From Candidatus Nomurabacteria bacterium (GTDB lineage Bacteria; Patescibacteriota; Minisyncoccia; Phycocordibacterales; UBA9973): a DNA stretch of 64,000 nt. Location: NCBI GenBank assembly GCA_023898605.1, contig CP060230.1, positions 241,662 through 305,661 on the forward strand, read 5' to 3'. The notes beneath the pieces are model-generated. The model was not told the origin of the DNA, searched no databases, and saw only the letters and a program-made list of their open reading frames with translations. How positions within the stretch are numbered: the first letter of the stretch is position 1; every line of letters starts with the position of its first letter. A program made the position numbers and the translations under genes. Below are positions 6,811 to 62,465 of the stretch, in pieces.

Positions 6811-6910
6811 AAAACATTTTGTCTTACAAAATGTTCGGGCGACCTTTATTTATAAAGGTTTAGCCCGAACAATAAAGATACTATAGCAAAATAGCCCCGA
6901 TTGGGCTACT
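6811..6910 (-). promoter_or_regulatory. Three consecutive hairpins between rpmG and tRNA-Trp (aacattttg/caaaatgtt; nested gttcgggc...gcccgaac around acctttat/ataaaggt; tagccc/gggcta)
   Basis: Perfect inverted repeats read directly. Possible processing or termination signals in an rpmG-tRNA-Trp transcript. Confidence 0.3.
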
Positions 6911-6917
6911 TTTACTT

Positions 6918-7076
6918 TTATTTCTTTTGCTCTTTGTGAAGAGTGTTCTTATTACACCATTTACAGTACTTTTTCAGTTCAAGCTTATTTTGAAGTATTT
7001 TCTTGTTTTTGCTTGACCAGTAGTTTATTCTTTTGCAATCTCCGCAAGCAAGCTTAAATAATCTATCTTGTGACAT
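6918..7076 (-). CDS. rpmG: 50S ribosomal protein L33 (52 aa; absent from the ORF track because it is under 60 aa)
   Basis: Manual translation MSQDRLFKLACGDCKRINYWSSKNKKILQNKLELKKYCKWCNKNTLHKEQKK: Cys4 L33 fold (C..C...C..C) and conserved LELKKYC. Confidence 0.8.
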   Translation of the reverse strand: MSQDRLFKLACGDCKRINYWSSKNKKILQNKLELKKYCKWCNKNTLHKEQKK

Positions 7077-16915: not shown

Positions 16916-17084
16916 TATTACTTATAATACCACTTTTATTTTATTTAGATATAAATTTAATATGATTTCGTAAATACATTTACATAACAAGTTGCTTGCA
17001 GTAATTCCCGCCCTGGGCACACAATAGATAACAAAAAGACCCATACGGGTCTTTTTGTTATGTGCTCGTACTGAGCTTATCGAA

Positions 17085-17104
17085 GTGCGCGGGAGAGGAC
17101 TTGG
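17085..17104 (-). repeat. Copy of the 3' end (T-arm 3' side plus acceptor 3' strand) of tRNA-Leu(UAG), ~160 nt downstream of the gene
   Basis: gtgcgcgggagaggacttgg is identical to 17262-17281. Confidence 0.6.
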
Positions 17105-17262
17105 TCAGGAGTTCCTTCGAAAAATCTCAGGACTCACGACCCTGGCTCGGTCACATCACTCACTTTGTTCGTGATGGCTTCGCAACCTCCGCCTTTCAAG
17201 TCCCCTCTCGTGGTAAAAAATAAATCACCCAATGCTTTCGCATTGGGTTCATTATTATTTTG

Positions 17263-25184: not shown

Positions 25185-27665
25185 TTATATTGTAGTGACA
25201 GAAGCGATAGCGTCTCCTGCTCTTAGTTTCATAATAGAAACTCCTTGAGTTTGTCTACCTAGGCTAGGTACTGATTCTAGTTTTACTCTGATCACTTGAC
25301 CCTTTTTGCTCATAGCGATCATTTCTTCTTCATCTCTTACAACTCTACCTACAATTATCGGACCTGTTTTTTCTGTAACTTTTGCAGTTTTTACTCCTCC
25401 ACCTCCACGCTTTTGTGCTTTGTATTCTGTGATCTTTGTTTTCTTTCCAAGACCGTTTTTACTCATAACTAGAAGCTCTGCATCTTTTTCGTTCTTTTCA
25501 ACTACCACCGCACCGACAATCTCGTCTCCTTTCTTTAGACTCATGCCTTTTACTCCACCAGCTGCTCTACCCATTTCACGCAAATCTGTAGAACGGAATC
25601 TGATAGACATACCCTCGTGTGATACAAGTACGACGTCTTTGTCCTTGTCGACAGCTCTAACTGCAACTAGTTCATCGTCTTTTGCGAGTTTGATAGATAT
25701 GATTCCGCTTCTTCTTACATCTTTGAAACTTTCTGCGCTAACCTTTTTACCGACTCCATTTTTTGTAATCATAACGAGTTCTGTTATGGCATCCTTCTTT
25801 CCTTTTTCTATTGGAAGAATAGAAGTGACTCTTTCTTCTCCATCGAGTGACAAGAAGTTCATTATAGATTTACCTTTTGTTGCACGCTTTCCTTCTGGCA
25901 AATCATACATCTTGATCTGGTAAGCCTTACCTCTGTTGGTGAAGAATAGTAGATCACTGTGCGTACTTGCCTGAACAAGCATAGTTACGAAATCTTCCTC
26001 TTTTGTTTCGAGATCTATAACTCCAACGCCACCTCTTTTCTGTGAGCGGTATTCACTAGGATCAGTTCTTTTTACATAACCACCTTGTGTAAATACCAAA
26101 ACAGAATCTTTTTCTGGGATAAGATCTTCATCACTTATAGATTTGACTCCACCTTTTACAAGTTTTGTTCTTCTTTCGTCACCGTACTTTTCTTTTATTT
26201 CTACAAGTTCGTCTTCGATAGTTTTCAGAATCTTTTTTGGACTAGCCAAAAGCGCTTCGAGTTCTGCAATAAGTTTTTGTTTTTCTTTTAGTTCTTCTTC
26301 GACTTGCTTTCTTTCTAGACCTGCAAGCTTCTGAAGTCTCATATCTAAAATCGCGTCTGTTTGCAAATCTGAGAATTTGAATTCTTTCATCAACTTTACT
26401 TTTGCTTCAGATGCGTCTTTTGATCCTCGTATGATACTTATTATCTTGTCGATATGATCAAGAGCCTTCTTTAGTCCGAGAAGTATATGTTCTCTATCTT
26501 TTGCTTTCCTTAGATCAAACTCTGTTCTTCTTCTTACAACTTCTTTTCTGTGCTCTATGAAATTTTCAAGAAGTCCCTTTAGAGATAGAAGTTCTGGAGT
26601 ACCTTTGACAAGAGCAAGCATATTGAAGTTGAAGTTTTGTTCTAGCTGAGTGTGCTTGTATAGATAATTCAAAACTTTCTGTGGGTGTGCGCCGCTCTTG
26701 AGGTCTATCACCACCTTTATATCTTTTGTAGACAGGTCACGTATGTCTTTGATACCTTCTATCTTCTTTTGCTGAACCAAATCAGCAATAGAGGTTATAA
26801 GGTTTGATTTCTTAACCTGAAAAGGTATAGAAGTTATAACGATTTGGAATTGTCCGGTTTTTACTTCTACAACTTCTGCCACACCACGAGTCACAATACC
26901 GCCTCTTCCTGTTCTGTATGCCTGCTCTATCTCTTTCTTGCCATAGATTATTCCACCAACTGGAAAATCTGGACCCTGTATAAACTCACATAGATCCTCT
27001 ACGTTTGCATCTTTGTTATTTATGAGGTGAACTGTTGCATCTATAACTTCACTTAGATTGTGTGGTGGTATAGCAGTTGCCATACCCACAGCAATACCCA
27101 TAGTTCCGTTTAGAAGAAGTGCTGGAACAGCCGCTGGTAAAACAGCCGGTTCTTTTCTAGATGCGTCATAGTTTGGTCTCCAGTCTACGGTATCTTTATC
27201 GAGATCTTTGAGCATCAAAGTAGCGATCTTTGTCATTCTTGCTTCTGTATAACGCATAGCAGCTGCTCCGTCTCCGTCGATAGAACCGAAGTTACCTTGT
27301 CCAAGAACAAGCGGATATCTATAAGAAAAATCTTGTGCCATGTTCACCATCGAATCATAAACAGCAGTATCTCCATGAGGGTGATACTTTCCGAGAACGT
27401 CTCCAACTACTGCTGCAGACTTCTTGGGTTTAGATGTAGGAGAAAGACTCATCTCGTTCATAGCATATAGAATTCTTCTATGAACGGGCTTCAAACCATC
27501 TCTTACGTCTGGAAGAGCACGAGAAGTTATAACGCTCATAGCATAAGAAATATAAGACTCCTGCATCTCTTCTACTATAGACTTTGGCACTACTGAAGAA
27601 GCGAGAACTAGTCCCCCTTCATCTTTCTTGTTATCGTCGTTTTTCTCTACTTTTTTCTTTGGCAT
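25185..27665 (-). CDS. gyrA: DNA gyrase subunit A
   Basis: Active-site region [28 protein letters not shown]. GyrA box and C-terminal beta-pinwheel repeats. Confidence 0.9.
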
Positions 27666-35426: not shown

Positions 35427-35465
35427 TAACCGGTGGGTCGCAGGTTCGATCCCTGCCCGCGGAGC

Positions 35466-35527
35466 CCTTCCTCCCTTTGGTCGTCAGGGTCTTTGACCAT
35501 GACAAATATACTGAAGGAAGGCACTGA
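35466..35527 (+). repeat. 62-bp direct repeat, copy 1, beginning 2 nt after the tRNA-Asn 3' end
   Basis: ccttcctccctttggtcgtcagggtctttgaccatgacaaatatactgaaggaaggcactga, 61/62 identical to 36878-36939. Internal inverted repeats ccttcc/ggaagg and tggtc/gacca. Confidence 0.85.
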
Positions 35528-35577
35528 TGATACTGAGAGAGAATACATCGAAGTAGAAGAAGTGCTATGATGTAAAT

Positions 35578-35817
35578 ATGTATCATGTTTATATACTTGA
35601 ATGTAAAGATGGTTCTTTTTATGTCGGATCAACAAATAACCTAGAAAAAAGAATAAAAGAACATAATACTTCTAAAAATGGCGCCCACTATACAAAAATA
35701 CGCAGGCCAGTTATCTTAAAATATTCAGAAACATTTGAAACATTAAAAGAGGCTCGTAAAAGAGAGTCGGAAATAAAGGGCTGGAGAAGAGAAAAGAAAA
35801 TAAACTTATTTAAATAA
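35578..35817 (+). CDS. GIY-YIG nuclease domain protein (79 aa)
   Basis: YILECKDGSFYVGSTNNLEKRIKEHN matches GIY-YIG motifs (GIY..YVG, R, E, N). Confidence 0.75.
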   Translation: MYHVYILECKDGSFYVGSTNNLEKRIKEHNTSKNGAHYTKIRRPVILKYSETFETLKEARKRESEIKGWRREKKINLFK

Positions 35818-36020
35818 AAAATTGCTCTTTTTTCGCATGTTTCAGAACTTTCAAAGATTTCTTTTACTCTGCGAGCGACAGAAAGTACTGTAGCTACAGT
35901 GATTTGATACTCATAATCAGCATTTGTATGCTCTGATAATTCAATTTCCAAAAGTTGTATTTTGTCGTGATACTCTTGATGCTTTTTATTATAGATATCC
36001 TTAGTAATACACAAGTTCAT
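35688..36020 (-). CDS. hypothetical small protein; its 3' part is antisense to the GIY-YIG gene, so its extent is doubtful
   Basis: N-terminal ~65 codons (35825-36020) lie in otherwise unassigned sequence. The rest overlaps 35688-35817 on the opposite strand. Confidence 0.25.
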   Translation of the reverse strand: MNLCITKDIYNKKHQEYHDKIQLLEIELSEHTNADYEYQITVATVLSVARRVKEIFESSETCEKRAIFYLNKFIFFSLLQPFISDSLLRASFNVSNVSEYFKITGLRIFV

Positions 36021-36086
36021 CTTCGTGAGAAAAGTCTATCTTATTCATTACTTTAGTTTACATACCTATTATGATATAATCAACGT

Positions 36087-36257
36087 ATGGCTAAGAAAAC
36101 TCCACAATCACAAAAGGTTACTTTTACAGCAAAGAAGGTCGTCAAAGAGCCGACTGTGGTTTCTTTCAATACAAAACAAGGTCGAGTAAGTTTTACTGCT
36201 CGGGTAAATGTTGAGAAGCCAGTGCAAGTCAGCTTCAAGGCAAAGAATAAAAAATGA
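36087..36257 (+). CDS. small repeat-containing protein (56 aa), putative antitoxin-like partner of the PIN protein
   Basis: Manual translation MAKKTPQSQKVTFTAKKVVKEPTVVSFNTKQGRVSFTARVNVEKPVQVSFKAKNKK. Its TGA stop overlaps the ATG of the next gene (ATGA). TATAAT 8 nt upstream. Confidence 0.45.
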   Translation: MAKKTPQSQKVTFTAKKVVKEPTVVSFNTKQGRVSFTARVNVEKPVQVSFKAKNKK

Positions 36258-36808
36258 AACTCTACCTAGATACAAACGTTATTCGAGATTACCTCGAAAA
36301 TAGAAATACAAACTCTATACAGCTATTGGAGCTTGCCAGACATAAGGGGTGGGAGTGTGTTACGTCTGCCTTTACGATGATGGAAGTTGCGGACCTTGAA
36401 CAAGATAGTATCTTCTTTCAAAAAACGGTCATACGTAAAAAATGGGATGCTGATAAGTTCTTGCGAGAACGCAGACAAAAAGAACTTACAGATAGCGATT
36501 ATCAAGACCTTGAAGAATATCTGGACGTAGTACCTGTACGTCTACCTTTTTTGACTTTCTTCAACTTGAGCGAAGACGGTTGGCAAATAGCACAATATAT
36601 TGCTTCGCACTCTGTTTTATCGGCAGTTGATACCATACACCTAGCAACGGCATACTCTGCGAAAAGCGACATTGTAGTTACAAACGATAGTGGCTTCATA
36701 AAGCACGGAAATAAGATACTGGAAAAGAGTAAGCGAGCAGGACAGATAGCAATCTGTTTGCCAGAGAAGGTTGAAGAAACGGCACAAAAACTAGGCATGA
36801 CTACCTAG
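36254..36808 (+). CDS. PIN-domain protein (VapC-like nuclease fold, 184 aa)
   Basis: LYLDTNVI...D..HLA.A..........VTND acidic-residue pattern of PIN domains. Confidence 0.6.
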   Translation: MKLYLDTNVIRDYLENRNTNSIQLLELARHKGWECVTSAFTMMEVADLEQDSIFFQKTVIRKKWDADKFLRERRQKELTDSDYQDLEEYLDVVPVRLPFLTFFNLSEDGWQIAQYIASHSVLSAVDTIHLATAYSAKSDIVVTNDSGFIKHGNKILEKSKRAGQIAICLPEKVEETAQKLGMTT

Positions 36809-36877
36809 GGGTATGCCAACAAACTTGAGGCCCTGTAACATTTTGCCATTCTATAGTTCGGAATGCGTCCAGCGAGT

Positions 36878-36939
36878 CCTTCCTCCCTTTGGTCGTCAGG
36901 ATCTTTGACCATGACAAATATACTGAAGGAAGGCACTGA
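36878..36939 (+). repeat. 62-bp direct repeat, copy 2
   Basis: See copy 1. Together they delimit a ~1.35-kb cassette carrying the GIY-YIG and small-protein/PIN genes. Confidence 0.85.
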
Positions 36940-43194: not shown

Positions 43195-43286
43195 TTTTCA
43201 GGTTTTTTCTTATAGTACTTTTTATATTGACTCTAGTCAAACAAACAAAAAAGAGCGCTCATATGATACGCTCTTTTTTGGAAAAA

Positions 43287-43382
43287 TTATCTTTTCTTTG
43301 ACGCCTTTTTTGTTGCCTTTTTAGTTGCTTTTTTAGCTGCCTTCTTTGGAGCCTTTTTTGCAACTTTCTTCTTTGCTGCCAT
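43287..43382 (-). CDS. Lys/Ala-rich basic mini-protein (31 aa; histone H1-like), paralog of 55518-55658
   Basis: Manual translation MAAKKKVAKKAPKKAAKKATKKATKKASKKR, with a terminator just downstream (43240-43272). The ORF-track entry 43259-43465 is in another frame. Confidence 0.5.
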   Translation of the reverse strand: MAAKKKVAKKAPKKAAKKATKKATKKASKKR

Positions 43383-43589
43383 AAAAATATAGAATGAATT
43401 TTATATAAAAATTCGACCCGTGAAGGTCCTATATGGCTCTCATCGATTCCACTAGGTGTCATCACTCACTGAGAATTGTAGCAAGCCTATTAACTCTAGC
43501 AATATGTTTTTGAAACAAGAGGCTGTGGATTAAATCAAAATAAATTAATGATTGACAAAAGACTCGTATTGATTTAATCTCTTTGGAAA

Positions 43590-44610
43590 CCAAAACCCCT
43601 CCAGCTACCCCTCAAGCAGAACACATTGCTGTTCTTTATAGTACACACTAGGAATTCTAAAATCAATCACTTCTCTCGGTCGGTCATTGATGAAGGAAAG
43701 AATACTTTCAATTTCTTCATCAGTTACGGTACTAACGTCTCTCTTCTTGGGTACAAAACATCTAATCCATCTATTGGTATTCTCTACCAGCCCCTTCTCC
43801 CATGAATGATAGGGATGTGTGAAGTATATGTTAGTATTTAATTGCTCTTCAATCACTTTCCAGTGATTGAAAGCGATGTCATTGTCAGTGGTTATAGTTT
43901 TAAGAGATTGACCATTGAACATTTCAGAAAGCGCGTGATTGATAGTCACGTGTTTTCTGTTTGGGAGCCTCTTTATGAGAGTATGTTTAGTTAAGCGATC
44001 AGTCGCCACAAGAAGTGACCAGGTGCTTTTTTTAGAAACAATAAAATCTACCTCCCAGTGACCAACACCAACTAATACGGGCCTATTTTTAATATATTTT
44101 CTATTATCTTTAGGGTTATCATATTTATACCTCTTCCTTCCACTCTTTTTCTTGTTCCATGACCAAAACAGGTACCTTTCTAGACATCTAGAGTCAATAA
44201 ACTTATATATTGCTTTATCTGAACATGTTATTTCATGTTCTTTATCTAAATACCCACTTATTTGTTTAGGTGACCATTTTTCAATAAGTTTCTTCTCCAC
44301 AAACCCAACTAAGAATCTATCCATAGAGACTTTCAAGCACTGCCTCTTTGATCTCCATCTTTTAATATATGATCTATGTTGGGCTTTATCTGCTATATAT
44401 TCTCCATTTACTCTATTTCTGTTGACTTCACTACTTATAGTACTTGGGCTTCTACCTAATAGCATAGCTATATCTCTAATCTTTATGCTTCTACTCAATG
44501 ATTTTTCAATCACAAATCTTTCCTCAAAAGAAAGATGTTTATATTGTTTTTTCTTTTTCATATGACAATAAACTTAACTTATAAATTGTTCTGCTTCAAA
44601 GTTCGTTGGG
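43590..44610 (-). mobile_element. IS30-family insertion sequence (~1 kb), boundaries approximate
   Basis: DDE transposase ORF. Imperfect terminal inverted repeats sharing aagcagaaca near 43611-43622 and 44590-44601 (reverse complement). Confidence 0.6.
43605..44561 (-). CDS. IS30-family transposase (N-terminal HTH, DDE catalytic domain)
   Basis: HWEVDFI, TDNDIAF, PYHSWEKGLVENTN motifs typical of IS30 transposases. Confidence 0.85.
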   Translation of the reverse strand: MKKKKQYKHLSFEERFVIEKSLSRSIKIRDIAMLLGRSPSTISSEVNRNRVNGEYIADKAQHRSYIKRWRSKRQCLKVSMDRFLVGFVEKKLIEKWSPKQISGYLDKEHEITCSDKAIYKFIDSRCLERYLFWSWNKKKSGRKRYKYDNPKDNRKYIKNRPVLVGVGHWEVDFIVSKKSTWSLLVATDRLTKHTLIKRLPNRKHVTINHALSEMFNGQSLKTITTDNDIAFNHWKVIEEQLNTNIYFTHPYHSWEKGLVENTNRWIRCFVPKKRDVSTVTDEEIESILSFINDRPREVIDFRIPSVYYKEQQCVLLEG

Positions 44611-44626
44611 GGACCGTTATTTTATT

Positions 44627-52481: not shown

Positions 52482-54953
52482 TTAATTTGCCCCGTGGCAT
52501 TTCTTGTACTTTTTGCCACTTCCACACGGACATGGGTCATTTCTACCGACTTTACTAAAATCGATGTTTGGGTCAGTAGGCTGAGGTATATTTTCTGGTT
52601 CTTTTTGCGTATTTTGACCCTGATTTACTATATTTCTAGTATCTATCTTGGAAATAAGGTCCAGAACATACTCTTTGAGCGATGCTTCCATCTGATTGTA
52701 TAATCTCAAACCTTCCCTTTTGTACTCAACAATAGGCTCTCTTTGCCCATAAGCTCTTAGATTCACAGAAGATCGAAGGTAATCCATGGTTTCTAGGTGT
52801 TCAGTCCACAAAACATCTGTCGCATACAAAATAATCCTTCTAGCCAAATCTAGGAATTTTTCTTCACCTATTTCTTGCCTTTTTTCAGTTATAACCTTTT
52901 CAGCATCGTTTCCAAGCTCCGAAGTTAGGTTTTTCAAGAACTCTTCTACGCCATTTTCGTCAGAAAGAAGCATTTCTCTTCTTCTTTTGTATACAGATGT
53001 TCTTTGGTGATTAAGAACGTTGTCATACTCTAGAACGTGCTTTCTTGCATCATAGTTTAGACCCTCTATTTTTGTTTGGGCAGTTTTTAAAGCTCGTGTA
53101 ATAAAGCTGTTCTGTATAGGCTCATCTTCCGGAACCCCAAATCTTCCCATCATGCTTTTGACTCTATCCGAACCAAATATCCTCATAAGGTCATCGTCTA
53201 GTGATACAAAAAACTGTGTTTCTCCCGGATCACCCTGTCTACCAGATCTACCTCGAAGCTGATCGTCGATACGCCTAGCTTCGTGTCTTTCTGTACCTAG
53301 AACATATAATCCTCCTAAAGATTTTATTTCTTCATATTCTTCGTGGCTAGAAAGCGCACCACCAAGTCTGATGTCGATACCACGACCCGCCATGTTTGTA
53401 GCTATAGTAACCGCGCCTTTTTTACCAGCGTCGGCAATTATTTCACCTTCTTTTTCGTGATTTTTTGCGTTTAGGATTGTATGCCTTACTCCTTCACCTT
53501 TCAAGAAGTCAGAAAGAAGTTCGCTTCTCTCGATAGATATCGTACCGATCAAAACTGGTTGGCCAGCCTTGTTTACTTCCTTGACTCTTCTTGCGATTGC
53601 TTTCCATTTACCTATCTCGTTTTGGAATATAAGATCATTGTTGTCTTTTCTCTGGATGGGTTTGTTTGTAGGGATAGAAATAACATCCATTCCATATACT
53701 TCGAAAAACTCTTCTTTTGAAGTCTTGGCGGTACCCGTCATACCAGAAAGCTTGTCGTACATCCTGAAGTAGTTTTGGTAAGTAATAGAAGCAGCAGTCT
53801 TGGACTCTTTCTTTATAGAAACACCTTCTTTGGCCTCTATGGCTTGGTGGATACCCTCTGAGTATCTTCTACCTGGCTGAAGTCTTCCTGTAAACTGATC
53901 AACTATTACAACTTCTCCGTTTCTAACTACATATTCTTTGTCTTTGTGGAACAAAGATTTTGCTCTAACCGCAATTTCAAGATGATGAACATACTTGATA
54001 CCTTTTTCTGAATATATGTCTTTTATATTGAGAGCCTTCTCTGCTTTTTCGATACCAGCGTCTGTCATATGTATGGCTCTTTGTTTTTCGTCTACAGTAT
54101 AGTCTTCTCCCTCTATCATAGAAGAAGAAATTCTTGCAAAAATCTCATATAGATTTTCAGAATCAAGGCTTGGCATAGACATAATAAGTGGAGTTCTGGA
54201 TTCGTCTATAAGTATAGAGTCCACTTCGTCTATAAGAGCAAAGTTGTGCCCTCTCTGTACAAGTATTTCTTTATCCTGAGCTACGTTGTCTCTCAGGTAA
54301 TCGAAGCCGAACTCGCTGTTTGTTCCGTATGTTATATCACAGTTGTAAGCTTCTTTTTTTGTAGCTGGTCTTAGGAAATCATAAGAGACCTTGAAAGAAC
54401 CTGTTTCGTCTCTTTCTTCATCTTTTACTTCCTCTTCTTCTTTTGAAGAAAAGTGGTTTGGGTCATATATATATGATGTGTTTTGTGAATTCAAAACACC
54501 GACAGAAAGTCCGAGGAAGTTATATACTTGTCCCATCCAACTTGCATCACGACTAGAAAGATAATCGTTGACGGTTACTACGTGTACACCTTTTCCCGTT
54601 AGTGCGTTGAGAAAAACTGGCAATGTCGCAACGAGAGTTTTTCCTTCTCCTGTTCTCATTTCTGCAATACCACTTTTGTGAAGAACTATTCCTCCAATTA
54701 ATTGAACGTCGTAGTGTCTCATGTTCAAAGTACGTTTTGAAGCTTCTCTAACAAGTGCAAAAGCTGGAGCTAGTATATCGTCCGTTTTTTCTCCATCAGA
54801 AATTCTTTGCTTTAGATTATTAGTCTCTTTTTTTAGATCTTCATCACTAAACTTTTCGTACTTACTTTCCAGACTATTTATTTCTGAAACAATCTTTCCG
54901 TATTTCTTGATTTTAGAATCTTCACTTTCTTTGAAAATCTTCCCCATCTTCAT
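52482..54953 (-). CDS. secA: preprotein translocase ATPase SecA
   Basis: DEAD motor motifs ([22 protein letters not shown]) and C-terminal zinc finger [14 protein letters not shown]. Start set at MKMGKIFKE. Confidence 0.9.
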
Positions 54954-55026
54954 AAGTAAGCATTTTAGCACAAAAAGGGCTTTTTTGATACCCAAAAATA
55001 TATTGAAAAATAAGGACTTTTAGGGG

Positions 55027-55055
55027 TTGACATATGGAGTCTAATCTGCTAAAAT
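55027..55055 (+). promoter_or_regulatory. Consensus-like promoter (TTGACA, 17-nt spacer, TAAAAT) driving a ~75-nt transcript that ends at a terminator
   Basis: Read directly. Divergent from secA. Defines a candidate small RNA of ~55062-55136. Confidence 0.4.
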
Positions 55056-55104
55056 AGGGCCGTGAGTGACAAACTCTAATAGTTATTAAAAACAATACCC
55101 TGGC

Positions 55105-55136
55105 AAAACCCCTCGAAAGAGGGGTTTTGTCTTTGT
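55105..55136 (+). terminator. Rho-independent terminator (aaaacccctc-gaaa-gaggggtttt)
   Basis: Perfect 6-bp GC stem, GAAA tetraloop, U-run. Confidence 0.6.
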
Positions 55137-55185
55137 ATAGAAAAAAACTACAGAAATTGCTATAATTGGTTTGTGCGATAATGCT

Positions 55186-55315
55186 TGCCTTTTGTAGGCC
55201 GGCGGCGCACTCACATAGGGTATTGTGTTGGAGTTCTGCCCCGCTGGCCTACAGCAGGCACGCAAAAAACACAAAATAAAAACAGTTAGATTTTTTTCTA
55301 GCTGTTTTTATTTTT
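55186..55315 (+). ncRNA. Candidate structured small RNA (GC-rich long helix tgtaggcc...ggcctaca containing AGCAG; ends with a terminator at 55281-55315); possibly SRP RNA-like, unresolved
   Basis: High GC (ggccggcggcgcac) in an AT-rich intergenic region. GCTATAAT -10 at 55170-55177. Antisense ORF 55086-55274 looks spurious. Confidence 0.25.
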
Positions 55316-55517
55316 AATAAAAATTATTTTTTTATAATAAAAAAAGTTTTTTGAAAAAAATAAAAATAAAAAATAAAAAGTTTTCCACATAAAAAATAAA
55401 AAAAATATTGTTTATACTTTTCTTTCGTAAGATAATTAATACAGAGGTGATGTAATATTTTATGTTTCATTACATGAGGTCGTGCATCACACATTATTAG
55501 TAACTAGTTACATTAAC

Positions 55518-55658
55518 ATGGCAGCAAAGAAGAAAGTGGCAAGAAAAGCTTCTAAGAAGAGAGCAGCTCCAAAGAAGAGAACTGCAAAAAAAGCTTCTAA
55601 GAAGAGAGCAGCTCCAAAGAAGAGAGCAGCTAAAAAAACTTCTAAAAGAAGAAAGTAA
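55518..55658 (+). CDS. Lys/Ala-rich basic mini-protein (46 aa; histone H1-like), paralog of 43287-43382
   Basis: Manual translation MAAKKKVARKASKKRAAPKKRTAKKASKKRAAPKKRAAKKTSKRRK. Two hairpin terminators follow (55690-55715, 55716-55747). Confidence 0.5.
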   Translation: MAAKKKVARKASKKRAAPKKRTAKKASKKRAAPKKRAAKKTSKRRK

Positions 55659-55756
55659 AGACCACAAAAAAACGAAAGCCTTCTCCTATCAAGAGGGTTT
55701 TTGTTTTGGCAAAAGAAAAACCTCTGCCATAAGCAGAGGTTTTTCATATTGATTGC

Positions 55757-56310
55757 CCATATCTATAAGCCGAATTCTGTATCCAAACCAAAACGGTTTA
55801 GGACGGCAACTATTTATCTAGCCCTTCAATTGCTATCAGGGTCAAGCGACTCAGAGTGTACACATGTGTACACAATACGGTCTTGCACAGTGGTAAGGAT
55901 TTTGCCGTTTCACTAAACTGATTTACAAAAAGTAGATCAGCCGTGCGGCCATAAAAATGGCTTAGCACCCATGTTACCATGGTATTCACCCCAAGAAGAT
56001 TACTCTTCTCAGGCTGTCTTTTGTTTTTCAACAAATAGACGTCACTGCTCGCACCTCTACCAATACCTTTCTCTAAAAGAGCCAAGGCACTGATGACGGG
56101 GGTTACCTTCACACTTTCATGTGAATTCTATTTATATAAATAGAACGCTACCATCTTCCTTTGGAATCGGGAAAGGTGCACACCTTATATATACCCCTTC
56201 TTTATAGCAGCAAAGAAGAAAGAGGCATGCACCTTTCCCAACCCAAAGGCTGTGTTCGGACTTTCCTCATCCACACAAAGGTGGACGCAGCTGCCCGATA
56301 CAGGCAAGAA
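55757..56310 (-). ncRNA. rnpB: RNase P RNA (bacterial type), approximate ends; unusually long (~550 nt)
   Basis: Minus strand carries the P4 signatures GAGGAAAGUCCGAACACAG (56257-56268 region) and ACAGAAUUCGGCUUAUAG (55764-55781), with a GGAAAGGUGCA...UGCACCUUUCC long helix. Confidence 0.7.

Positions 56311-60904: not shown

Positions 60905-62465
<1,561 letters not shown>

Follow-up and report, generated by a model that had tools for sequence, protein, structure and literature searches.

Two paralogous Lys/Ala-rich mini-protein genes with GGUCG-containing leaders in a Parcubacteria-type CPR bacterium

The window analysed in this study, a stretch of 64,000 nucleotides, originates from a Parcubacteria-type CPR bacterium that lacks an anti-Shine-Dalgarno (anti-SD) sequence and was seen in activated sludge, with run SRR6747804 as an example (PMC12126587). 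It harbours two short Lys/Ala-rich open reading frames, termed ORF1 and ORF2, whose coordinates, strands, lengths and common MAAKKKVA start were found to be exactly as given in the original prediction. The features of their two transcription units, together with the secA gene, which lies outside the ORF2 unit and served as a syntenic anchor, are as follows:

43287..43382, minus strand: coding sequence of ORF1, 31 amino acids, MAAKKKVAKKAPKKAAKKATKKATKKASKKR
43475..43502, minus strand: predicted sigma-70 promoter of ORF1, TTGCTA-16-TGnTACAAT (promoter scan, 9/12 matches and an extended -10 TG)
43383..43469, minus strand: 5' leader of ORF1, beginning with GUGAGUGAUGA
43245..43279, minus strand: intrinsic terminator of ORF1, AAAAAAGAGCG...CGCUCUUUUUU (minimum-free-energy fold)
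55518..55658, plus strand: coding sequence of ORF2, 46 amino acids, MAAKKKVARKASKKRAAPKKRTAKKASKKRAAPKKRAAKKTSKRRK
55408..55436, plus strand: promoter of ORF2, TTGTTT-17-GATAAT (read from the sequence)
55443..55517, plus strand: 5' leader of ORF2, comprising the P1 stem, an inner hairpin, GGUCG and a spacer
about 55668..55707 and 55715..55745, plus strand: two terminator hairpins of ORF2 (fold and scan)
52482..54995, minus strand: secA

The ORF1 product contains 15 Lys and 1 Arg residues (net charge +16, pI about 11.7) and the ORF2 product 18 Lys and 7 Arg residues (net charge +25, pI about 12). The non-polar residues of the window peptides are limited to Ala and one Val. Both genes are composed of in-frame repeats, with a period of 12 nt (4 codons) in ORF1 and of 45 nt (15 codons, 2.8 tandem copies) in ORF2, and their first 11 codons are nearly identical, the exceptions being a silent GTT/GTG difference and a K/R replacement. 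When the window was searched with the 32-nt back-translated pattern of MAAKKKVA[KR]KA, allowing up to 2 mismatches, two sites were retrieved (ORF1 and ORF2), as opposed to 0 in 100 shuffles. A six-frame scan of the 64 kb for Lys/Arg-rich low-complexity sequences identified ORF1 and ORF2 as the only K-rich small ORFs of this kind; the sole other site (26254..26328, minus strand) is Arg/Cys-rich and differs in composition from the Lys/Ala-rich ORFs. The claim that neither gene is overlapped by another ORF had to be corrected, since a 68-aa ORF in a different frame (43259..43465, minus strand) covers ORF1, and Phe/Leu/Cys-rich ORFs of 79 and 56 aa lie antisense to ORF2. These overlapping frames are compositional shadows of the K-rich frame.

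The predicted promoter of ORF1 places the transcription start near position 43468 and thus yields a leader of about 85 nt. Its GGUCG motif (43418..43414) is located 36 nt before the AUG, in the same position as in other members of the family described below, and a GACCU/GGGUC hairpin followed by a U-run is found at 43428..43415. The stem enclosing the motif is ambiguous in this leader and fits the general model poorly, involving either a weak AUAUAGGA/UUUUAUAU pairing or GAGUGA/UCAUUC. The sequence that opens the ORF1 leader, GUGAGUGAUG, also occurs in a GC-rich stretch of about 120 nt downstream of tRNA-Leu(tag) (17083..17215, minus strand), which ends in an exact copy of the 3' end of this tRNA (caagtcctctcccgcgca) and may represent an interrupted or degenerate tRNA. 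Both ORFs are followed by a strong terminator, as originally proposed: ORF1 by a hairpin with a T-run, which the terminator scanner passed over because of a loop larger than 8 nt, and ORF2 by two hairpins. The 96-aa gene downstream of ORF1 has a predicted promoter of its own. The ORF1 locus is unrelated to secA and adjoins a rhodanese gene. An IS30-family insertion of about 1015 bp (43598..44612, minus strand; transposase ORF 43605..44561; 3-bp target duplication) is situated 215 nt upstream of the ORF1 ATG; strains L002-L004, which are identical apart from the element, lack it, and the insertion point coincides with contig breaks in several assemblies. A further region of note lies at 35430..36939 (plus strand), where a tRNA/tmRNA-like 3' end (GGGTCGCAGGTTCGATCCCTGCCCGCGGAGCC), uncalled by ARAGORN or Rfam, is followed by two 66-nt direct repeats (35462..35527 and 36874..36939, 97% identical) that flank a GIY-YIG-like gene and a 184-aa gene. 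The arrangement resembles that of a small integrated element flanked by repeats of the att type.

The leader of ORF2 starts with an outer stem, P1, in which 55447..55454 (GUGAUGUA) pairs with 55483..55490 (UGCAUCAC). Inside P1, an AU-rich hairpin precedes GGUCG (55478..55482, 40 nt before the AUG), and the stretch between P1 and the AUG is an AU-rich spacer without a Shine-Dalgarno (SD) sequence. ORF2 converges on the gene for RNase P RNA, which is probably also served by the second of the two ORF2 terminators. This gene (55761..56302, minus strand) is divergent, with a full-length match to RF00011 at E=8e-14 and 55 bits compared to a gathering threshold of 97; it comprises 542 nt with four insertions of 63-82 nt and was overlooked by a default Rfam scan and by ordinary annotation. 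Two small promoter-to-terminator units were additionally observed between secA and ORF2 (55027..55312, plus strand). The first consists of a TTGACA-17-TAAAAT promoter (55027..55055) and a terminator hairpin (55102..55131), the second of a promoter (55138..55166), a GC-rich hairpin of about 85 nt (about 55180..55262) and a terminator (about 55275..55312). The second unit, with a fold z-score of -10.5 and without an Rfam match, could encode an sRNA of about 135 nt.

The position of GGUCG was compared across Paceibacteria-type loci with similar mini-genes. GGTCG or GTCG was detected 31-85 nt before the ATG in 38 of 40 loci, against a background of 0.03-0.06 per 120 nt, and in 22 of these 38 loci a TTGnnn-N16-18-GATAAT promoter was identified upstream of it. 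The motif constitutes the 3' end of a loop or junction in most loci, with a closing stem that starts a few nt past the predicted transcription start, and an inner AU-rich hairpin is often inserted. The stem arms vary between genomes yet pair, G·U included, as exemplified by GUGAUGAU/AUCAUCAC, GUGUGAUU/AAUCACAC, UUUGCAAUAAA/UUUAUUGCAAA and GCAUCGA/UCGAUGC as well as the P1 arms of ORF2; at least 8 distinct complementary arm sequences were found among the leaders. To evaluate the stem, pairings anchored at the motif were scored against two null models, and a condensed alignment was built. Stems of at least 8 bp were obtained for 45% of the leaders and for 9% of dinucleotide shuffles (p=7e-11), and the GGUCG-anchored stem outperformed stems at other anchors of the same leaders (p=1.3e-5), the latter by a modest margin because AU-rich leaders form hairpins readily. 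The condensed alignment displays changes on both sides at all 7 pairs, while its 100% pairing is circular by construction. Alignment of the full-length leaders with MAFFT followed by RNAalifold predicted 0 pairs, because the inner hairpins, AU-rich and variable, throw the stem arms out of register.

A strict descriptor, which demanded a -10 box, a stem of 7 bp or longer and GGTCG at the end of the loop, gave 32 matches in 685 kb of CPR DNA, 17 of which lie directly upstream of mini-ORFs. The remainder are mostly weak matches within genes, with one strong extra match in the window, where a UGUUCGGG/CCCGAACA stem closing a GGUCG-ended loop (6833..6877, minus strand) precedes tRNA-Trp downstream of the bL33 gene (6918..7076). 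This element is preceded by a TGcTATAGT box and followed by UUUUGU, and it may act as a leader element or attenuator. No match to either the ORF1 or the ORF2 leader was returned by a covariance-model scan against Rfam 15 (cmscan in E-value mode), the motif is not present in SD-bearing copies of the family outside the CPR, and a literature search on GGUCG leaders yielded nothing relevant. Two other explanations of the motif were rejected. A function as -35 element is at odds with its variable spacing to the ATG and with the lack of a consistent -10 box downstream; a function as alternative partner of the 16S rRNA is at odds with the same variable spacing and with the occurrence of CGACC in 16S only internally (position 843). 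Judged by these comparisons, the conservation of GGUCG appears solid and the presence of an enclosing stem probable.

Both ORFs are gene calls in publicly available metagenome assemblies, with 11 contigs for ORF1 and 1 for ORF2, so that the description of the genes as unannotated holds for the 60-aa cutoff applied in the original prediction but not beyond it. The contigs concerned are 100% identical to the window and hence uninformative on selection. Selection was assessed in three independent same-length orthologue pairs, using only codons outside the search pattern. Substitutions at the first, second and third codon positions numbered 2, 5 and 31, respectively (binomial p=1.3e-9), and the comparison of L055 with L064 gave 15 synonymous changes and 1 non-synonymous change. 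AAG accounts for 58% of the Lys codons in ORF1 and ORF2 taken together, compared to 28% in the long ORFs of the window (p=6e-4), and the longest A-run in either gene does not exceed 7 nt. Selection against the sliding of ribosomes on poly(A) would be expected to produce an AAG preference and short A-runs. Copies of the gene from SD-using phyla carry a perfect AAGGAGGUGA 6-8 nt before the start codon, and in about 90 loci the K-rich tract begins exactly at the ATG and ends at the stop codon. These patterns indicate that ORF1 and ORF2 are real protein-coding genes and that purifying selection acts on the amino-acid sequence of the mini-proteins.

An SD site was identified in 1 of the 48 long ORFs of the window and at neither ORF1 nor ORF2. 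The 3' end of the 16S rRNA (60915..60960, minus strand) reads GGAAUCAUUC in place of GGAUCACCUCCUUA, so that the anti-SD is lost. In many genes of the window, a TATAAT box lies no more than about 10 nt from the ATG, a spacing that points to widespread leaderless or short-leader mRNAs. The absence of an SD site at ORF1 and ORF2 is thus explained by the loss of the SD system in the host and provides no argument against their translation. Loss of the anti-SD is documented in a subgroup of the Parcubacteria (PMC9297842). Trypsin was computed to cleave both peptides into fragments of at most 4 aa, leaving standard proteomics blind to their products.

A search of 185,579 GTDB species-representative genomes with a degenerate DNA pattern of the N-terminus retrieved 77 loci, the majority of which are stand-alone K/A/V-rich ORFs of 15-70 aa that are concentrated in the Patescibacteria. 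A typical family ORF continues as (A/V)KK repeats and ends in a K-run. Orthologues range from 13 to 92 aa in length and drift freely in sequence; to some extent, the N-terminus looks conserved between phyla because the search pattern selected for it. Tandem mini-gene pairs, each gene with its own SD, were observed in one genome each of Methylomirabilota (L010, 4062..4240) and Acidobacteria (L066, 3941..4164), indicating that multi-copy arrangements arise independently outside the CPR. No match to the N-terminal pattern was obtained among 2.9 million viral contigs, none of 10 family peptides was present in a collection of 15 billion proteins by exact look-up, and a word-indexed protein search with ORF2 remained empty because of the low complexity of the query. 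The original proposal is supported in that the two ORFs are genuine paralogous genes for Lys/Ala-rich mini-proteins, each a transcription unit of its own, and in that they have further family members, tandem pairs in other genomes among them. The multi-copy family proposed for this genome is conjectural, the 64 kb covered here containing two copies. By composition, ORF1 and ORF2 can be placed within a widespread class of stand-alone mini-proteins that is especially common in the Patescibacteria.

Comparison of the neighbouring ORFs (all versus all) revealed 16 CPR loci in which the mini-gene immediately precedes secA on the same strand. The usual order is murB, mini-gene, secA and then a gene that encodes about 197 aa. 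Other groups have conserved neighbourhoods of their own (Moraniibacteria and Kiritimatiellales/Verrucomicrobia, e.g. yicC, mini-gene, gmk). As a control for ascertainment, 80 metagenomic secA loci were fetched with the SecA sequence of the window as the sole query. Twelve of the loci reach a SecA identity of 56% or more and have upstream DNA available; in 9 of these 12, a K/R/A-rich mini-ORF (13-92 aa) precedes secA and stops 83-170 nt short of it. The rest of the sample (601 kb) contains only three dubious K-rich ORFs. The mini-ORFs of the nearest SecA relatives vary in their start, with MATRKRK (MATRKRKAAKKPAKRK...), MKKKARK (MKKKARKTTKK...) and MPAAKKK (MPAAKKKVARK...) as examples. A terminator separates mini-ORF and secA in every relative (stem of 7-12 bp, mostly 12 bp, G+C-containing), which makes the mini-gene monocistronic, and several relatives have an extended -10 box between this terminator and secA. 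In the window, secA and its downstream gene are kept, there is no murB nearby, and the ORF2 unit is inverted such that it diverges from secA, with the two start codons about 520 nt apart. By gene order, ORF2 is the positional orthologue of the mini-gene found upstream of secA. Among the secA loci, L105 (3444..4001) comprises a mini-gene, a terminator, an hpf-like gene (judged by its N-terminal sequence only) and secA, and L126 (3275..3655) has an hpf-like gene (identified by eye) upstream of secA and no mini-gene. The mini-gene and a putative ribosome hibernation factor thus occur in the same surroundings.

The sequences were compared with models of known protein families. Neither ORF1 nor ORF2 matched any Pfam entry in hmmscan at E<=10, and the HC2 (PF07382) and Hc1 (PF07432) models also did not match relatives of 71-110 aa. 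The globular winged-helix domain of the Pfam Linker_histone family is not present in ORF1 or ORF2, which are pure low-complexity sequences of 31 and 46 aa. The NCBIfam model of AlgP/Burkholderia-type H1-like proteins (NF038053) gave 10.5 bits for ORF2 (E=0.54, cutoff 80) and no match for ORF1. Models of ribosomal proteins (bTHX, bS22, bL37 and similar; NCBIfam and Pfam, E<=10) gave no match either, and a sequence search of the PDB gave no meaningful one. The designation as H1/Hc1/AlgP-like is therefore retained as a description of composition and dropped as a statement of family membership, since even relatives of 70-110 aa match no Pfam or NCBIfam model. In other phyla, the MAAKKKVAKKA start and the adjoining A/K module form the N-terminal tail of proteins with an HU (PF00216, 1e-15), SWIB (6.5e-24) or DksA/TraR (4e-11 and 2e-10) domain. 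These fusions suggest that the module is usually associated with DNA and with components of the transcription apparatus, and they would favour a role of the mini-proteins in DNA or chromatin. Nucleoid compaction, as originally proposed, would be a plausible function. A regex search for HU within the 64-kb window, too small a sample to be informative, found none.

The reading we prefer, to which we assign a probability of roughly 0.55, is that ORF1 and ORF2 are independently transcribed paralogous genes for disordered polycationic peptides that bind polyanions non-specifically, with DNA as the likeliest target. In each unit, a predicted promoter and a structured leader of about 75-85 nt, which contains GGUCG but no SD, precede a short ORF, and a strong intrinsic terminator follows it. 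Expression or mRNA stability is probably under the control of the leader, perhaps with the peptide itself exerting feedback. With 31 and 46 residues of this composition, the peptides are almost certainly intrinsically disordered and would act in trans as non-specific polyanion binders. Binding to DNA would neutralise its charge and compact it in the manner of the C-terminal tail of H1, Hc2 or the Lys-rich tails of HU; binding to RNA is also possible. A function that is set by bulk charge rather than exact sequence would explain the drift in length through in-frame gain and loss of repeats, and the maintenance of composition despite variable length and sequence fits a charge-driven, non-specific binder. 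Against a role in the nucleoid, some members of the family, at 13-22 aa, are small compared to classical nucleoid-associated proteins, and a target in RNA or the ribosome is equally compatible with much of the data, including the A/K extension of uS19 discussed below and the mini-gene before hpf-secA in L105.

Structured and conserved 5' leaders are typical of autoregulated ribosomal-protein genes, and the mini-genes possess a leader of this type. The peptides could accordingly be basic fillers or chaperones associated with the ribosome or RNA, comparable to bTHX, bS22, bL37 or eL41, with the GGUCG leader as an rRNA-mimicking site of autogenous feedback. We regard this as possible, though clearly less probable than polyanion binding centred on DNA. 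It is consistent with the position of the mini-gene, which takes the place before secA that hpf occupies in L126 and precedes hpf and secA in L105, with the GGUCG hairpin before tRNA-Trp, just past the bL33 gene, and with the reduced ribosomes of Parcubacteria, whose uS19 bears an A/K-rich extension (PMC9297842). It is opposed by the missing match to any NCBIfam or Pfam ribosomal-protein model, by lengths of 13-92 aa and a free sequence drift, which would not be expected of proteins accommodated in a fixed rRNA pocket, and by the fusion partners of the module, which bind DNA or RNA polymerase and include no ribosomal protein.

A tentative and somewhat less favoured variant would treat the oligolysine peptides as genetically programmed polycations, i.e. 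as surrogates for protamines or polyamines, with the leader as a so far undescribed riboregulatory element, a stem close to the transcription start with an invariant GGUCG, that would sense free peptide or the cation status and set peptide synthesis accordingly. According to this scheme, a Parcubacteria-type CPR bacterium that has lost SD initiation and has a minimal metabolism would employ the peptides to neutralise the charge of both DNA and RNA.

The conserved position just before secA, the order of short ORF, terminator and gene, which recalls classical attenuators, and the existence of versions with only 13-16 aa would suit a cis-acting leader peptide, in which stalling on poly-lysine or attenuation controls the downstream gene (secA in the relatives). 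This is very doubtful. ORF2 is divergent from secA in the window and faces the convergent RNase P RNA gene, ORF1 resides at an unlinked locus, secA has its own extended -10 box past the terminator in several relatives, and other phyla keep the mini-gene elsewhere, as in the yicC-gmk arrangement. Moreover, purifying selection acts on the amino-acid sequence, the AAG enrichment avoids long A-runs, and no alternative antiterminator pairing is evident. The combination of a co-directional target, a terminator/antiterminator pair and a target without an independent promoter, which defines an attenuator, was not found, and the presence of a terminator after every copy argues against a secA leader peptide.

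Still less credible is an export of the peptides as antimicrobials or for the interaction with host cells. They are highly cationic and adjoin secA, and CPR bacteria are often episymbionts; yet they have neither a signal peptide nor a hydrophobic face, their restriction to Ala and a single Val as non-polar residues deprives them of the amphipathicity of membrane-active peptides, the same module forms tails of the cytoplasmic proteins HU and DksA, and no phage-borne copies were found among the viral contigs scanned with the N-terminal pattern. That the ORFs are not genes at all, arising by chance in purine-rich low-complexity DNA or as the fortuitously open A/G-rich body of a non-coding RNA, is similarly improbable: AT-rich, T-poor repeats are open in several frames (such as the 68-aa frame over ORF1), no protein family matches and the peptides are missing from the large protein cluster collection, but the third-position substitution bias, the SD at the correct distance in SD-using phyla, the confinement of the K-rich tract between ATG and stop codon, the in-frame repeat periods and the lack of the pattern in shuffled sequences all speak against it.

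Our preferred reading of the mini-proteins as polyanion binders has several implications. CPR-type organisms have very few recognisable nucleoid proteins, and the peptides, if they are abundant counter-ions of the nucleoid or of RNA, would represent a missing component of chromatin or ribosome biology. They escape the usual tools through gene-size cutoffs, low-complexity filters, the lack of a Pfam or NCBIfam model and tryptic fragments of at most 4 aa. In bacteria that do without an SD mechanism, the GGUCG leader may represent a new cis-regulatory RNA, and if the polycation-sensing variant is true, leader and peptide would constitute a new small-protein/RNA feedback module across a large part of the bacterial tree.

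Among known systems, the SecM-type ORFs resemble the mini-genes in that a short ORF lies directly upstream of secA in many relatives. They differ in that the mini-gene has no signal sequence or arrest motif, an intrinsic terminator divides it from secA, and ORF2 is on the opposite strand in the window. Protamines and the small proteins bTHX, bS22, bL37 and eL41 are similar in size (20-50 aa), in their content of more than 50% basic residues and in their function as counter-ions of nucleic acids; protamines, however, are Arg-rich and eukaryotic, and the sequences of the small ribosomal proteins are fixed, free of repeats and covered by NCBIfam models, none of which was matched here. Closer in composition are Hc2 (HctB) and the C-terminal domain of H1, which share Lys/Ala-rich low-complexity repeats (AKK, PKK, VAKK), an extreme pI and a presumed electrostatic binding to DNA. 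To our knowledge, neither a GGUCG-type leader nor a synteny with secA has been known for Hc2 or H1. Hc2 varies in length between strains through in-frame gain or loss of short repeats (PMC2848022). The repeats of the mini-genes are likewise in frame (12 and 45 nt) and their lengths variable (13-92 aa), a likeness that is compositional and does not imply homology. Hc2 comprises 165-237 aa, in contrast to the stand-alone peptides of 31-46 aa in the window, which also have no globular or N-terminal domain.

Further parallels are provided by proteins with basic tails. Deinococcus and mycobacterial HU proteins carry Lys-rich tails. Tails of this type in AlgP and PhaF of Pseudomonas bind DNA, polyphosphate or RNA (PMC9239181, PMC12818456). 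Unlike the tails of HU/Hlp, AlgP and PhaF, the module in the window has no attached folded domain that would confer specificity. Streptomyces DdbA combines an H1-like with a DksA-like part (PMC3643593), an architecture that is echoed by the fusion of the K/A module to DksA/TraR in other phyla, whereas in the window the module makes up the whole protein. The new findings comprise how widespread the mini-protein class is, the signs of purifying selection on it, its synteny with secA and the conservation of GGUCG in its leader. The known bacterial Lys/Ala-rich "H1-like" proteins are larger or consist of tails on folded domains; the module described here stands alone with 13-92 aa, and its position and leader RNA are conserved across many CPR lineages.
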